From Candidatus Amesbacteria bacterium (GTDB taxonomy: Bacteria; Patescibacteriota; Microgenomatia; CAZETR01; Amesbacteraceae), in NCBI GenBank assembly GCA_963736875.1, contig CAVTQH010000003.1:65756-129755 (forward strand): a stretch of 64,000 bases of DNA, read 5' to 3'. The translations under genes and the position numbers were made by a program. Below, one piece after another: positions 4,180 through 56,430 of this stretch. Each line of letters begins with the position of its first letter. Position 1 is the stretch's first letter. The notes beneath the pieces are model-generated. The model had not been told where the DNA came from. It worked only from the letters and a program-made list of their open reading frames with translations, and searched no databases.

Positions 4180-5286
4180 ATGAAAGTGGCTTTGGTGCAT
4201 GATTATCTGAAAGATCCGGGAGGAGCGGAGGCGGTATTAATGACTTTAAAGCAGATGTGGCCGGAGGCCCCTGTTTATACCGCGTATGCATTCCCCCGAT
4301 ATTGGGGGAGGTACGGAAAAATTCTGGAGAAGTGGAATATCCGGCAAAGCTGGGGCCGGTTCCTGCCGTTTTTACCAAAGTTATTGTCCTACTACACGAT
4401 TTTGTCCCCTTTGTTTTTTTTAAAAATGGACTTGTCGGAGTTTGACTTGGTAATAATTTCCCAAACAGGCGGTTATTTTCCCAACGGGGTGAAAGCTGGA
4501 CCGAAGACCAAAGTGGTTACGTATTGTCATACGCCGCCCAGATTTTTATACGGTTATGAAACCGCAACCAAAGAAAGATACAGATGGTATTGGCGGCCGG
4601 TTTCGGAAGTGGCAAACCATATATTGCGGATGGTGGACTTTAAATTTGCCCAAAAACCGGATTTGTATATTGCCAACTCTAAAAATGTAGCCAACAGAAT
4701 TTGGAAGTTTTACAGAAGGAAGGCTATGGTGGTATATCCACCCATAGAAATTAGTACTAAAAGCGAAGTGCTAAGTACTAAGGAGAAAAAAGACTATTTT
4801 CTTATCATCTCGCGGATTATCGGGAGCAAGAATATTGAATTGGCGGTTGCGGCCGCTAACAAATACGGATTTAAATTAAAAATTGCCGGGAAACCCGTCG
4901 GTAAAAGCGGGGAAGAAATCGCAGTAAAAATTACCGGTTCGACAGTTGAATATCTGGGAGAGGTGGATGAGATAACAAAAGTGAGGTTGTTGTCTGAAGC
5001 AAGAGCATTTCTGGCTCTGGAAAAAGATCCGGATTTCGGGATGACAGCGGTGGAACCGCAGGTTTACGGGACGCCGGTGATTGCATACAAAAATGGCGGA
5101 TATTTGGAAGCGGTGGAGGCGGATAAAACCGGAGTATTTTTTGACCAACTGACCCCGGAAGGTTTATGGGCAGGGATTCAAAAGTTTAATAAAATAAAGT
5201 GGGACCGGAAAGTAATTATCGGTAATGCCCGGAAGTTTTCCAAAGAGAATTTCATAAAGGGGATAATGAAAGCTGTTTCAGAGTAA
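4180..5286 (+). CDS. glycosyltransferase family 4 (GT-B, group 1)
   Basis: 'MKVALVHDYL...GGAE' N-terminus and C-terminal 'FGMTAVEPQVYGTPVIA' EX7E-like motif. Confidence 0.75.
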   Translation: MKVALVHDYLKDPGGAEAVLMTLKQMWPEAPVYTAYAFPRYWGRYGKILEKWNIRQSWGRFLPFLPKLLSYYTILSPLFFLKMDLSEFDLVIISQTGGYFPNGVKAGPKTKVVTYCHTPPRFLYGYETATKERYRWYWRPVSEVANHILRMVDFKFAQKPDLYIANSKNVANRIWKFYRRKAMVVYPPIEISTKSEVLSTKEKKDYFLIISRIIGSKNIELAVAAANKYGFKLKIAGKPVGKSGEEIAVKITGSTVEYLGEVDEITKVRLLSEARAFLALEKDPDFGMTAVEPQVYGTPVIAYKNGGYLEAVEADKTGVFFDQLTPEGLWAGIQKFNKIKWDRKVIIGNARKFSKENFIKGIMKAVSE

Positions 5287-16488: not shown

Positions 16489-16545
16489 AATTATCCAGGG
16501 TAAAAAGACTTGCGTCGTAATTGGAGTTGTGCTAGTGTGGTTGGC

Positions 16546-16866
16546 GTGGCAACTTTACATTTAACCAAAAACAATTTTGACGAAAAAATAAAAACAGGAG
16601 CGGTACTGGTGGATTTTTGGGCTCAGTGGTGCGGTCCCTGCCGGATGGCCGGGCCGGTTATCGATGAGCTGGCCGAGGAGTATAAAGATAAACTGGCTGT
16701 TGCTAAGGTAGACGTGGATTCGGAACCGGAAGTGGCTGAAAAGTTCGGAGTGATGAGTATTCCCACGGTGATTTTGTTTAAGGACGGGCAGGAAGTCGGC
16801 AGACAGATAGGGTTTGCCGGAAAAGCGGGATATATTCAGCTTCTGCAGAAAGCGGGAATACAGTAG
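16546..16866 (+). CDS. trxA: thioredoxin
   Basis: 'VLVDFWAQWCGPCRM' WCGPC active site. GTG 16546 is the likely start (the track ORF begins at 16510). Confidence 0.85.
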   Translation: MATLHLTKNNFDEKIKTGAVLVDFWAQWCGPCRMAGPVIDELAEEYKDKLAVAKVDVDSEPEVAEKFGVMSIPTVILFKDGQEVGRQIGFAGKAGYIQLLQKAGIQ

Positions 16867-22312: not shown

Positions 22313-23803
<1,491 letters not shown>

Positions 23804-31345: not shown

Positions 31346-31459
31346 CTGATTTGGTTGTCAGTCCCGGTCCCGCTTTGTACGGGATCGAGATTGACAACCA
31401 AAATACCGGTTGCTCTTTGAAAAGTGAAGAAAATAAAGTAGTAGAGCCGTATTTTTTAT

Positions 31460-34737
<3,278 letters not shown>

Positions 34738-34794: not shown

Positions 34795-34912
34795 TCCCGG
34801 TCATCTGAGCGGCGTGGAACTACCTCTTCCCATTCCGAACAGAGCCGTAAAATGCGCCAGCGCGGACAATAGCTAAGTCGCGAGACTTCGTGAAGATACG
34901 TCATGGCCGGGA
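34795..34912 (+). rRNA. rrf: 5S ribosomal RNA
   Basis: Helix I CCCGGTCAT / ATGGCCGGG; internal 'CCCATTCCGAACAGAG...GCGCCAG' loop-C/helix-III region. Followed by a T8 run (34922-34929). Confidence 0.8.
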
Positions 34913-40753: not shown

Positions 40754-41241
40754 TCTCGCTCTCGCTCGCTATAGGCTTGAAATATTTGACAGAAAATGTT
40801 ATAAACCCGGTGAGGGTTACGAGAAGCAATGAAAAAACTGCTCAAATGGTTACGGGGTGAGTCTGTCCCCGAAAAGAGGAGGATTAGGCGGGTGTTTAAG
40901 AGTTCAAACCCCTGGATGCGGCAGCAGCTGAGAAAAATGAGTTCTATGAATCAGGAGATTATTTCAGTTCGGGCCGGAAGGTAATTACTCCGGCAAAAAA
41001 AGAAGCATCGCTAACGCTAGCTTGAGGGCCACGAGTAGCAATGCCTCTTTGAGATAAAAACGCCTGGACAGAATGGGCGCCTTCACTTAATTTAAGGTGA
41101 TAACATTCGCCCGTTTTTTTGTCAAGAAAAAAATCTGCCCAATAAGCGCACTTTTTTAAACTTTTTAGCTATACTGATAAATTGTTTAAAATGCATCTTG
41201 AAACGGGGGGTGGTGGGTAGGGCAGGCCTACCACTTCCCGT

Positions 41242-42111
41242 TTGAGGATGTATATGAAAACAAATAATTTGCGGTCGGTGATCTTTGGTGCAGCCTTGTT
41301 TACAGGCTTATTATTTTTGGGATCCGGACCGGTTGAGGCCAGGATGGATTACGGTTCGGGATATTATGTGAATTTATGCGACAGCGGTACCGCAGCCACA
41401 TACTACAATTGTGATCCGGGATGTGATCCCCGGACCGGGTCCTGTACCAGCATTAACAACGGTGTGGTCAAATGGGTGTGTCTGGGTAAGTGGAATCAGT
41501 GCCTGGAATCTGAAAGTCAGTGGACAAACTATGAACAGGTCGATAATGTCGGATGCGGTTACACAGTGCAATTGTCACTATTTGATAAAAAATGCCGCAG
41601 GGAGGACGGGAGCTGGGATGCCGGATGCAGATTATTGGGATACATGGTTTGGTATTCAGGGGAGTGTTGGGAAGCGGGGACGATGGTAACACCCAAACCC
41701 AGTCCGACCAAGGTACCGATTGCCACAGTCACGCCGACGATTAAACCGAAAATTAACCCCACGGCGGTGATTGTATCCAAATTTACCAATCAGGCGGCAT
41801 CTTCTCCGGCCAAATTGACTCCGACACCGACTGCGGCACCCGTGGTCAAAATGTGCGGGCAAAAATGTCAGCAGGCGGCGGATTGTCAGGCAGGTTTTGC
41901 CTGTATTGAAGCCGTATGCCGCAATCCGGGATGTCCTTCCGATAAAACCTGTTTTTGCCAGGGTGGATCGGCTTCAGCCTCCGCGGTGTCAAAAATGAAT
42001 CCGGATACCGGAGTGGAGACCTGGCTGGGGATGGCCGGTATGGCAGCTTTGGGGGCTTTGGGAATGAAGCTGAAACGGGTAGCTAAAAAGGTATGGCGGG
42101 GGAGATCTTGA
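41242..42111 (+). CDS. secreted Cys-rich protein with Pro/Thr-rich stalk and C-terminal sortase sorting signal (NPDTG + TM + basic tail)
   Basis: Signal peptide 'MKTNNLRSVIFGAALFTGLLFLGSGPVEA'. 16 Cys in the N-terminal domain and a second Cys cluster 'CGQKCQQAADCQAGFACIEAVCRNPGCPSDKTCFCQ'. C-terminus 'SASASAVSKMNPDTG-VETWLGMAGMAALGALGM-KLKRVAKKVWRGRS'. Confidence 0.6.
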   Translation: MRMYMKTNNLRSVIFGAALFTGLLFLGSGPVEARMDYGSGYYVNLCDSGTAATYYNCDPGCDPRTGSCTSINNGVVKWVCLGKWNQCLESESQWTNYEQVDNVGCGYTVQLSLFDKKCRREDGSWDAGCRLLGYMVWYSGECWEAGTMVTPKPSPTKVPIATVTPTIKPKINPTAVIVSKFTNQAASSPAKLTPTPTAAPVVKMCGQKCQQAADCQAGFACIEAVCRNPGCPSDKTCFCQGGSASASAVSKMNPDTGVETWLGMAGMAALGALGMKLKRVAKKVWRGRS

Positions 42112-42143
42112 CAAAATCAGGATAATATCCTATAATATGGGGT

Positions 42144-42884
42144 ATGAAATTGAACTTTTTGGTAATTTTAGGCTTGATTTGGGGAATGGTTTTGGCTTTG
42201 GCTTGGCCTCAGAGGGTCGTGGCTGCCTGGCCGAAGCTGAAAATTGAGTACACGGCCAGAAATCTGACAAGCGGATCTGCGTGGGGGGAAAGCCTGGATG
42301 CCAATACGGGAGACAAACTGGAATTAAAAGCGGTATTGAGTAATACCGAACCCGGATCGACAATACAGGATGTGAAGATAATGGTGCCGCTGTCCGATGA
42401 AAGGCTGGTTTTACACCAGCGCTTCCATCTGCGGGCTTTAAATTCGGGGAGTCTGGATACGGAAGTTGCAGTCAGTGTGCCGTCCGGGTATATGGTTATG
42501 GAGTATCTGCCCGGGACTTCAAAATTGACTGCCGGGGGGAATAGCCGGGGGATTTCTCCGGATACCGATTCCACCAATATCACAACCCAGGAAATTGCGA
42601 TAGGGAATATCCCCTACGGGGACGGGAATGCGGTTACCATCACGTATCAGGTGCAGATAATGGAGAGTAAAAAAGAGGCTTCCGGTTCCGGATCGAAAGC
42701 GGCCGCGGAAGGAGCGATAGGCGGATCCGGTACAGCCAGTGCATCCGCGGTTGCTAAATCAAATCCAGAAGCCGGTATCGGTGACTGGGTATCGTCACCG
42801 GCTTTGAGGTGGTTGATGGTGGGAGTTTTCGGGGTGGGCTTGAAAACCTGGGGAAGAAAGATCCGGGAGCAGACTTTGGTGTAA
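42144..42884 (+). CDS. secreted protein with C-terminal sortase sorting signal (NPEAG + TM + basic tail)
   Basis: Signal peptide 'MKLNFLVILGLIWGMVLALAWPQRVVAA'. C-terminus 'GSGTASASAVAKSNPEAG-IGDWVSSPALRWLMVGVFGVGL-KTWGRKIREQ'. Confidence 0.55.
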   Translation: MKLNFLVILGLIWGMVLALAWPQRVVAAWPKLKIEYTARNLTSGSAWGESLDANTGDKLELKAVLSNTEPGSTIQDVKIMVPLSDERLVLHQRFHLRALNSGSLDTEVAVSVPSGYMVMEYLPGTSKLTAGGNSRGISPDTDSTNITTQEIAIGNIPYGDGNAVTITYQVQIMESKKEASGSGSKAAAEGAIGGSGTASASAVAKSNPEAGIGDWVSSPALRWLMVGVFGVGLKTWGRKIREQTLV

Positions 42885-42894
42885 AGTTAAAAGT

Positions 42895-43650
42895 GTGAAG
42901 AAAGGAATAATTTTTCAAAAAGGGTTACCTACGGAAGAAGTGAGAATATCATCGGCAGTGGCAATACTTAGAACGGCGGCCAGGGTTGTCAGTTGGATCG
43001 GATCGGCTCTGATAATGATTTCGGTATCGGGGCTGGTATTTGTGTATATACCGCTCGGGATAGCCGAAGTGCGGTATACATTTTCAAAAACCCAGTTGTC
43101 CAGGGCGATTCAAAATACGCGAAACCAGGCCTGGACACAAAAATTGAATGAAAATAAAACCGGAGGACGGTCTGTGAGTAAACCACCGGAAGATAATTTA
43201 CCCAGAGACTGGGCAGTTCCGGATACGAATTATTCGATATACATTCCCAAAATTTATGCAATTTCCCGGGTAATTCCCAACGTGGATGCGGGAGATCCGA
43301 AAGTCTATTTACCCGCTTTGAAAACGGGGGTAGCGGAAGCTTTGGGACTGTCCCATCCGGGGCAGACGGGAACGACTTATTTATTTGCACATTCAGTGGG
43401 TACGAGGTGGGATTTTGCAAGATATAATGCGGTATTTTACCTGCTGGAAAAATTGGAGATAGGAGACAGGGTGGAAATTGTGTACGGCGAAAAACTTTAT
43501 AAATACGAGATGGCGGAGCGGGAAATTCTGGCAGCTTCCGATACCAAATACCTGATACCCCAGACAATTTCGGAGAAGCTGGTTTTAGCCACCTGCTACC
43601 CTCCGGGGACAACCTGGAAGCGGCTGGTGGTAGTGGCTAAAAGAATTTAA
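42895..43650 (+). CDS. sortase family transpeptidase (membrane anchored)
   Basis: N-terminal TM; catalytic His 'TYLFAHSVG', Cys in 'LVLATCYPPG' (TLxTC motif) and Arg 'WKRLVVVA'. Immediately downstream of the two NPxxG substrates. Confidence 0.75.
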   Translation: MKKGIIFQKGLPTEEVRISSAVAILRTAARVVSWIGSALIMISVSGLVFVYIPLGIAEVRYTFSKTQLSRAIQNTRNQAWTQKLNENKTGGRSVSKPPEDNLPRDWAVPDTNYSIYIPKIYAISRVIPNVDAGDPKVYLPALKTGVAEALGLSHPGQTGTTYLFAHSVGTRWDFARYNAVFYLLEKLEIGDRVEIVYGEKLYKYEMAEREILAASDTKYLIPQTISEKLVLATCYPPGTTWKRLVVVAKRI

Positions 43651-43746
43651 GGCAGGCAGGTATTGACAGGTAAAGAGCGGATGCTATACTAGCTCTTAGC
43701 CTTCGGGTTCTTGGAGGAAAAGTTTAAGATTTGAAACCCCTGATTT

Positions 43747-55764: not shown

Positions 55765-56430
55765 ATGGAAGGACCCATCGATAATGAATCCCCTGATTTG
55801 ATAAGAGCAAAAGACATTAATATTATAAAAATAGAAGATCCGGGTCAGAAGCAGAAAATAACGGTGATATTACATGAAATGATCAAGGATTCAGAAACCC
55901 ATCCTATACAAGGAATCGTACCCAAGGAAATGACAAAAGAAGAGATTGAAAAAGCAACCTCAAGTTTAAAGATATTTTCCGGAGTCAATGGTTATGAAAA
56001 GTGGTATACAGAGAACGTCAACCCTTTGAGTAAGAAGGATAAATTTAAACTCCGGTTATCTTTTTTGGGTGCCGGAGCCGTATTAGCAACTGATCAGGGG
56101 GATAAGGATAAAAGCAGTTGCATAATATTATTAGAACCTAAAGTTAAGTATTTACTGCATGAGTTGAAGCATTTTGCCGACTATACGGTTTTTGGTAAGG
56201 AATATGTTGATAAAACTGCAAATTTACCATCGCCTATACCCTGGAGAATTATCCAGACAGCATTGTCGATATCCGGTCCGATAATAGGTGTGAAATATCC
56301 GGAAACAGGATTGTATATCAGTTCTTTGGCCTTAGGATTGTTAGCAATTAGTTTGATTGTAGAGTCTAAATATCGTTTAAATACAGGAGAACGGAGATCC
56401 TCTAAGGCAGAAGAGAAATTCTTAAACTGA
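55765..56430 (+). CDS. hypothetical protein (221 aa, C-terminal TM)
   Basis: ORF only; hydrophobic 'LYISSLALGLLAISLIV' near the C-terminus. Confidence 0.35.
   Translation: MEGPIDNESPDLIRAKDINIIKIEDPGQKQKITVILHEMIKDSETHPIQGIVPKEMTKEEIEKATSSLKIFSGVNGYEKWYTENVNPLSKKDKFKLRLSFLGAGAVLATDQGDKDKSSCIILLEPKVKYLLHELKHFADYTVFGKEYVDKTANLPSPIPWRIIQTALSISGPIIGVKYPETGLYISSLALGLLAISLIVESKYRLNTGERRSSKAEEKFLN

Follow-up and report, generated by a model that had tools for sequence, protein, structure and literature searches.

In this work we describe a locus in a window of 64,000 nucleotides (the whole stretch of Candidatus Amesbacteria DNA that was analysed, from contig CAVTQH010000003.1), in which three consecutive genes on the + strand encode two secreted proteins, P1 (41254–42111, an open reading frame, ORF, supported by a database match) and P2 (42144–42884, an ORF read directly), and a membrane-anchored sortase of 251 amino acids (42895–43650, Pfam PF04203). 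The nearest named relatives of all three proteins are in Candidatus Amesbacteria (Microgenomates, Candidate Phyla Radiation, CPR), and we consider that these genes probably form a cell-wall protein-anchoring cassette of an Amesbacteria bacterium, in which P1 is controlled post-transcriptionally. An original prediction, made from the letters of this DNA, had described the three + strand ORFs, which were all found as stated, and had proposed that the sortase acts on the secreted proteins encoded beside it, through a non-canonical sorting signal common to both; the comparison below bears this out, the adjacency being conserved across the clade. The CPR, or Patescibacteria, represent a large share of bacterial diversity and are mostly uncultivable, and, type IV pili apart, little is to our knowledge understood of how their surface is assembled and how they adhere to partners. 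The locus provides a concrete, testable sortase–substrate pair, with a non-canonical signal that escapes the standard LPXTG detectors.

The association of the three genes was analysed in 80 loci around sortase relatives, taken from species-representative genomes. The order S1–radA–P1–(P2)–sortase–rho is found in all Amesbacteria-like loci (L001–L014 and L017, about 15 genomes). The tripartite layout of sorting signals (an xPxTG motif, a hydrophobic stretch and a basic tail, placed 17–45 residues from the C-terminus of a protein with a signal peptide) is present, and when every ORF of the loci was scanned for such a tail, the credible matches were almost exclusively the gene or genes that immediately precede the sortase. 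The same pairing is seen with other signals: directly upstream of the sortase lie a QPxTG substrate with a P1-type head in the three loci tested out of three (L082, L084, L085), [TA]PKTG substrates with different N-terminal parts in L081 and L086, a VLGA...LPKTG substrate in L089, an MPKAG version of the substrate with the P1-type head in L035 and an LPKSG version in L025 (Woesebacteria). Proteins P0307 (L086) and P0274 (L089) combine other N-terminal parts with the same C-terminal module as P1 and their genes immediately precede that of the sortase in the radA–rho interval; P0303 (L081), built in the same way, is encoded upstream of the sortase and rho. The contigs of P0190 and P0211 carry no visible sortase, but are too short to show adjacency. 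The first position of the motif thus appears, from these sequences, to have changed from one lineage to another (L, Q, M, or T/S/N), and the conservation of the pairing during this drift is the strongest available argument for the tails being sortase signals. The original prediction had called for a comparison of related genomes, and in that comparison both the substrate–sortase adjacency and the P, T and G positions of the motif are kept. This natural series of position-1 flavours (L, Q, M, T/S/N), each with its own sortase variant, could be of use for the study of sortase specificity and for engineering.

P1 and P2 end with the same kind of tail. The C-terminus of P1 is GSASASAVSKM-NPDTG-VETWLGMAGMAALGALGM-KLKRVAKKVWRGRS, with NPDTG encoded at 41998–42012 (+ strand) and the hydrophobic stretch and basic tail at 42013–42108 (+), and that of P2 is GTASASAVAKS-NPEAG-IGDWVSSPALRWLMVGVFGVGL-KTWGRKIREQTLV, with NPEAG encoded at 42762–42776 (+). 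Common to both is SASAV-x-K-x-NP[DE][TA]G followed by a short hydrophobic stretch and then Lys/Arg, and the BLASTP alignment of the two proteins is confined to their 45 C-terminal residues (40% identity, E 9e-6). The residues common to the two tails are encoded by different codons, so that the similarity is not due to a recent gene conversion and is kept at the protein level. Motif statistics were derived from 56 distinct P1-family tails. Pro occupies position 2 in all of them (56/56), Thr position 4 in 55/56, and Gly position 5 in 52/56, the other 4 having Ala; position 3 is E in 22, D in 16, K in 6 and other residues in the rest, and position 1 is T in 26, S in 17, N in 5, A in 3, L in 2, and V, P and Q in 1 each. 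The distance from the motif to the C-terminus is always 26–32 residues, and the neighbouring positions are variable. The P, T and G of the motif are under strong constraint, more than chance would give. These counts give [TS]P[ED]TG as the consensus of the clade, in which the NP seen in the window genome is a minority variant. As for the SASAV stretch, which had been suspected of extending the recognition site, an upstream [AS][VI][ATSV] element does go with the signal type, as it precedes 37 of 66 N/A/S/T-type tails and 2 of 50 L-/Q-type tails; it is a real accompaniment of the N/A/S/T-type signal. Tail flavours among P1 relatives are lineage-specific: [TSNA]PxTG with the A-V element, QPxTG, and two LPKTG types, one in which LPKTG is followed by LPxAAW and a long tail, the other in which it comes after VLGA.

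We propose the following mechanism. P1, and in this subclade P2, would be exported by the Sec pathway owing to their N-terminal signal peptides, and their C-terminal hydrophobic stretch and Lys/Arg tail would keep them in the membrane. The neighbouring type II membrane sortase would cut [T/S/N]P[D/E/K][T/A]G between Thr (Ala in P2) and Gly, the Cys234/His166/Arg243 triad being the predicted catalyst of tail cleavage and peptides of the AVSKMNPDTGVE and TPETG types the predicted sequences for cleavage. The acyl-enzyme intermediate would then be resolved onto the amine of a peptidoglycan precursor, much as in Gram-positive sortase anchoring, and the disulfide-rich head of P1 would be displayed on its Pro/Thr stalk. 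Finally, P1 expression would be controlled after transcription by a leader hairpin that occludes the ribosome-binding site.

Several points weigh against this reading. The P1 head has no detectable similarity to characterised adhesins. In the P2 family, 4 of 8 tails have Ala instead of Thr before the Gly, which is unusual among sortase signals, and the hydrophobic stretches of P1 and P2 are short and moderately hydrophobic (best 15-residue Kyte-Doolittle mean about 1.45–1.5). In addition, the acceptor may be other than classical lipid II, the CPR cell envelope being poorly characterised. This last point can be extended to an alternative in which the tails are cleaved and the acceptor is not peptidoglycan: water, which would release P1, an S-layer, a glycolipid or another protein. 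CPR envelopes are atypical and the enzyme lies outside all characterised sortase classes; furthermore, the sortase of one related locus of the QPxTG type is followed by a gene for a 464-amino-acid YkuD protein (L,D-transpeptidase; L082, 9859–11253), which hints at a link of the sortase family with non-classical peptidoglycan cross-linking, and hence at non-standard wall chemistry. Nevertheless, a peptidoglycan acceptor is plausible because the window also encodes a Mur ligase, an alanine racemase (Alr), MurB and a MurA-type enzyme. Anchored surface proteins that span the Gram-positive wall usually have a Pro/Thr stalk and then a wall-proximal module, and nothing points to an alternative acceptor, so that we regard this alternative as improbable compared with anchoring to the wall.

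The sortase of the proposed wall-anchoring cassette has an N-terminal transmembrane helix (residues about 33–60, about 42991–43074, +) and the three residues expected of a catalytic triad, His166 in LFAHS (43390–43392, +), Cys234 in LATCYPPG (43594–43596, +) and Arg243 in WKRLV (43621–43623, +), which are invariant among 26 orthologues. It matches PF04203 with an E value of 9e-17 (61.5 bits, cut-off 26.6), and its sole passing match in NCBIfam is with a generic model, TIGR01076 (43.6 bits, cut-off 39.35). A classification with hidden Markov models had been recommended as a check; it identifies the protein as a sortase of a general kind and gives it no class, as no class A–F model reaches its cut-off. 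No class A model of NCBIfam matched the window enzyme or the 26 orthologues, and no class B model matched the former at E ≤1 or the latter at E ≤0.01; the window enzyme matched none of the Protein Data Bank (PDB) entries labelled sortase B or class B, even at E ≤10. Scores were 38.1 bits for the class C model (cut-off 160), 42–47 for class D (140–165), 23.7 for class E (160), 18.8 for class F (166) and 23.4 for class GN (158). The best solved relative is a class C pilus sortase, found by profile with an E value of 1e-7 over the last 70 residues only. An exact-sequence look-up of the window sortase gave no match. By curated thresholds, the enzyme would thus belong to a Microgenomates sortase lineage outside classes A–F.

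That sortases are present in Microgenomates is already known: a family, fam000526, was reported to be near-ubiquitous in this group (Meheust et al. 2019, PMC6744442), and the window sortase very probably belongs to the same enzyme family. In what we could consult of that study, the description bears on distribution only, with no substrates, signal variants, synteny or leader RNA (PMC6744442). No description of Microgenomates sortase substrates was found in the literature and, as far as we found, the syntenic Cys-rich substrate, the lineage-specific signal flavours, the radA–rho core cassette and the leader RNA are all apparently undescribed. The sortase had been thought to be dedicated to P1 and P2; its gene occupies a core-genome slot between radA and rho and its family is reported to be near-ubiquitous, which suggests that it may instead be the general sortase of the cell, with one syntenic partner. 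A regular-expression scan of the window for the TLxTC/TCYPP motif found no second sortase. Amesbacteria-type sortases carry GVAEA, xHPG and KYLxPQ where L-/Q-type sortases carry GxAHA, xFPG and SWL/FL; these could be specificity positions, which is a lead only because the difference is fully confounded with phylogeny.

Comparison with known systems leads to the same view of the enzyme as one that fits none of the established classes. Class A is disfavoured on the substrate side also, as only 2 of the 56 tails have a motif that begins with L. Class C and D sortases act in pilus assembly and in spore-associated LPNTA anchoring. They have the catalytic core in common with the window enzyme and provide its best-scoring class models and solved structures; however, the scores are 38–47 bits against cut-offs of 140–165, the alignment with class C structures is limited to about the last 70 residues, a pilin Lys is lacking and the motif is not LPxTA. 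Class B sortases recognise motifs of the form NP(Q/K)(T/S)(N/G/S), with NPQTN or NPxTG substrates as in the Isd locus of Staphylococcus aureus or Bacillus anthracis. As in the Isd systems, the enzyme of the window is encoded beside its putative substrate and the motif begins with NP, and the signal had first been considered closer to class B NPxTG than to LPxTG or LAxTG. This parallel was not sustained: Asn is in the minority at position 1 (5/56), E and D predominate at position 3, the enzyme lacks any class B signature or match, and there is no haem-uptake context. The tail model NF033846 (Rumino_NPXTG) also stays below its threshold (14.6 versus 23.5 bits). The closest signal type is that of Clostridioides difficile SrtB, a single membrane sortase which cuts SPKTG, PPKTG, SPSTG and SPQTG between T and G, with (S/P)PXTG substrates (PMC4155245). 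As in that system, the putative substrates are surface proteins that end with a tripartite tail of this kind, and S (17/56) or P (1/56) is found at position 1 in Amesbacteria tails. The two differ in that C. difficile SrtB belongs to class B by its sequence and the Amesbacteria enzyme gives no match with that class; in addition, T dominates position 1 in the Amesbacteria tails, and the substrate gene there always adjoins the sortase gene, in the radA–rho core slot.

P1 is the conserved substrate. Its ORF was listed from a TTG at 41242, and the ATG at 41254 is the likelier start because it is preceded by GAGGA (41244–41248) and because it agrees with a database protein of 285 amino acids (P0121, on a contig of 193,912 bp) that is 100% identical to P1. 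On the + strand, the gene encodes successively a signal peptide (MKTNNLRSVIFGAALFTGLLFLGSGPVEA, 41254–41340), a Cys-rich head (41341–41673) in which 10 Cys are conserved across the family, a Pro/Thr stalk acting as linker (41674–41844), an eight-Cys module (41845–41964) and the tail described above. In an AlphaFold2 model based on 40 homologues, the predicted local distance difference test (pLDDT) is about 90 for the head (residues about 55–140) and about 88 for the C-terminal Cys module, with a disordered linker between them. A Foldseek search of the PDB with this model gave no match at E <0.2; the sole mildly suggestive match, not significant, was of the C-terminal module with 24 residues of a cyclic cystine-knot peptide, and was set aside. 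Searched against 1.84 billion representative proteins, the P1 profile finds 733 relatives (representative clusters), 248 of them at E ≤1e-10, and among the top 150 matches most align through the Cys-rich head. This head recurs as an N-terminal module of proteins of 114–1369 residues, followed in the relatives scanned by stalk domains of the PKD, DUF11, CARDB or SpaA/SdrD-B-like types, and it constitutes a widespread, so far unannotated domain. Judged from the domain order, such a head-plus-stalk layout is that of surface adhesins that bear a binding head at their distal end, and by this resemblance P1 would be a candidate adhesin. The suggestion of the original prediction that the locus may serve host attachment in an episymbiont is favoured in an indirect way only, by the place of this head at the N-terminal tip of such proteins (with PKD, DUF11 or SpaA domains). 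The C-terminal Cys module with its tail is also found alone, terminating other proteins. A group of relatives of this module (P0247, P0271, P0279–P0282, P0292, P0294, P0316 and P0319) end with PTPK[IT]PV[SA]GSG followed by a hydrophobic stretch that closes with LLLLGLAL, without a basic tail; this ending may be a distinct sorting signal or system on the same Cys-rich module. In the window, a regular-expression scan for CxxC disulfide machinery found one thioredoxin-like WCGPC ORF only (16504–16866), apparently cytoplasmic.

P2 appears as an accessory substrate, its homologues being found between P1 and the sortase in the closest clade only (L001–L003). It is composed of a signal peptide, an all-beta body, a Gly/Ser/Ala linker, the sorting signal, the hydrophobic stretch and the basic tail. 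Its AlphaFold2 model is all-beta with a pLDDT of 57 (five-sequence alignment), and because of this low value the Foldseek matches obtained (green fluorescent protein-like barrels, galectins) are meaningless; the P2 family profile has no solved relative among PDB sequences. In 5 of 8 members of the family there is a weak, sub-threshold match with the Pfam GBS104-like Ig domain of tip pilins (best E 1.8e-4). This match, the presence of two substrates next to the sortase gene as in pilus operons, and the class C/D models and class C structures being the best, though weak, matches of the sortase could point to a covalent fibre assembled in the class C manner, with P2 as shaft or base and P1 as tip adhesin. 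We consider such a pilus very unlikely. Neither alignment A2 (40 P1 sequences) nor A4 (8 P2 sequences) contains a Lys that is invariant or close to it, which leaves no candidate for the nucleophile of a pilin motif; most genomes that keep P1 and the sortase have no P2; the class C score is 38 bits for a cut-off of 160; and the five P2 members with an Ig match are close relatives, not independent cases. The description of the substrates as pilin-like therefore has to be abandoned, this sub-threshold Pfam match being the sole pilin-related signal.

It is also hardly credible that the tails are plain, uncleaved membrane anchors, the sortase acting on proteins encoded elsewhere and the adjacency being historical, for although the standard LPXTG-anchor models of Pfam and NCBIfam do not recognise the P1 and P2 tails, plain anchors would not hold Pro, Thr and Gly near-invariant at a fixed distance from the C-terminus amid variable flanks, the otherwise unrelated P1, P2, P0303, P0307 and P0274 share the tail and each adjoins a sortase gene, and this adjacency is kept across lineages with different motif flavours.

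We return to the anchoring cassette and to its proposed post-transcriptional control. The spacer between radA and P1 contains a block with 75–84% DNA identity across genomes in which the P1 proteins are only 45–55% identical. The element nearest to P1 is a leader hairpin (41191–41253, +) identified by minimum free energy and covariation, with a conserved 9-nt loop, UAGGGCAGG, in which GGGCAG is invariant. In the window its minimum free energy is -50.6 kcal/mol (z -8.6). The 3' arm pairs with the Shine-Dalgarno sequence GAGGA (41244–41248) and stops one base short of the start codon. When the sequences are aligned without gaps, with the loop as the sole anchor, compensatory changes are observed in all 8 of the 8 inner pairs, 89.9% of cells are paired compared with at most 54% when the partners are slid, and the covariation score is 0.81 versus 0.26 for shuffles (0/500). 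Loop and stem together occur exactly once per sequence in 21 sequences (the window and 20 loci; 0.95 Mb, both strands), at 4313–4337 in L001, 3035–3059 in L025, 2499–2523 in L088, 4755–4779 in L089 and in 16 other loci. The hairpin is always 5' of a sortase-adjacent substrate gene, including that of the LPKSG protein of Woesebacteria (L025), so that this conserved leader RNA marks the cassette and suggests a regulated display. We infer that the hairpin gates P1 translation, perhaps via a loop-binding factor; a long hairpin with a conserved 9-nt loop is more in keeping with a site bound by a protein or an RNA than with a metabolite aptamer. A precedent for a structured leader RNA before a sortase-substrate gene exists in C. 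difficile, in which a cyclic di-GMP riboswitch controls sortase substrates (PMC4591827); unlike that riboswitch, the P1 leader matches neither GEMM nor any other Rfam family.

Further upstream, the spacer carries a small basic Arg/Lys-rich ORF of 51 amino acids (MKKLLKWLRGESVPEKRRIRRVFKSSNPWMRQQLRKMSSMNQEIISVRAGR, 40829–40984, +). Homologous ORFs of 43–57 amino acids are found at the same position in L001–L004, L006–L012, L017, L018, L048 and L081, with the motif WMRxQLxRMxKMNQGxISMxxGR, and the 51-amino-acid ORF matches no Pfam or NCBIfam family. As a speculation, its Arg-rich product would be the obvious candidate for a protein binding the hairpin loop. This ORF is conserved upstream of another candidate structured RNA, about 120 nt long (RNA candidate 1, 40993–41111, +), which would form a long irregular helix and two small hairpins; the RNAalifold consensus has 22 pairs in three helices. 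Its covariance model (R1) gives a single match per locus, on the + strand, and also detects it in loci that were not part of the training set, with 71 bits in L014, 56–59 in L015, L017 and L018, 40 in L089 and 37 in L088. It is present in the distant loci L088 and L089 and weakly in L035, and the L088 copy is not beside radA. In an alignment fitted to the model, 94.5% of cells are paired versus at most 48% with slid partners, and both sides have changed in 13 of the 22 pairs. In L008, L010 and L081 there is a paired insertion at the apex of the helix. The identification of this candidate as RNase P RNA, signal recognition particle RNA or transfer-messenger RNA (tmRNA) was dropped, being unsupported by Rfam and ARAGORN. 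Rfam 15 gave nothing at gathering score for the leader hairpin or RNA candidate 1, the matches at E ≤10 being chance ones with microRNA precursor, small RNA and small nucleolar RNA models, far below gathering scores, and ARAGORN found no tRNA and no tmRNA among the elements upstream of P1. Between RNA candidate 1 and the hairpin lies a promoter-like box (TTGTCA, 17 nt, ATAAGC; 41119–41147, +). Its GTCAA core is invariant in the 17-sequence alignment A6 and, in 20 of 24 loci, is located 6–8 nt after RNA candidate 1; a TAnAtT-like hexamer usually comes next, with a spacing of 17 nt. This box is the presumed P1 promoter.

A broader interpretation would go beyond the cassette itself. The enzyme would represent a distinct sortase class, with a position-1 specificity re-tuned in each lineage and with the A-V element also read; the core surface-display cassette, with its hitherto unknown disulfide-rich head domain, would provide the principal attachment module of these cells; and the leader hairpin would be a new riboregulator that switches the cassette, possibly bound through its loop by the small Arg-rich protein. 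We find this wider view, taken as a whole, rather doubtful, and put it forward tentatively.

The flanks of the cassette are housekeeping genes, those of ribosomal protein S1 and RadA upstream and that of Rho downstream; beyond Rho, the window encodes an amino-acid kinase and the Mur ligase, Alr, MurB and MurA-type enzyme mentioned above. A third substrate candidate was considered, an ORF at 55765–56430 (+) that ends with YPETG, a hydrophobic stretch and a charged tail; because it is devoid of an N-terminal signal peptide, the resemblance to a sorting signal is probably due to chance. A perfect sigma-70 consensus (TTGACA, 17 nt, TATAAT; 12/12 matches) is present at 42108–42136 (+), overlapping the P1 stop codon and stopping 7 nt short of the P2 ATG, and P2 has no Shine-Dalgarno sequence at the proper spacing; this could possibly be an internal promoter yielding a leaderless P2 mRNA. 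A near-perfect promoter consensus (TTGACA, 16 nt, TG-TATACT) is found at 43663–43690 (+), between the sortase stop codon and rho.

Other observations concern the window at large. The 16S rRNA (22314–23803) and the 23S–5S rRNA (31456–34736 and 34796–34912) are about 7.6 kb apart, and protein-sized ORFs and tRNAs occupy this gap. The 23S match spans 3281 nt for a model of 2925 positions, which suggests an insertion or an intron. Lastly, GC skew is positive in all 2-kb bins of the window (1–64000; 0.12–0.42) and the large ORFs are mostly on the + strand, which recalls the strand compositional disparity reported, in the part of the source available to us, for another Microgenomates genome (PMC7143001).

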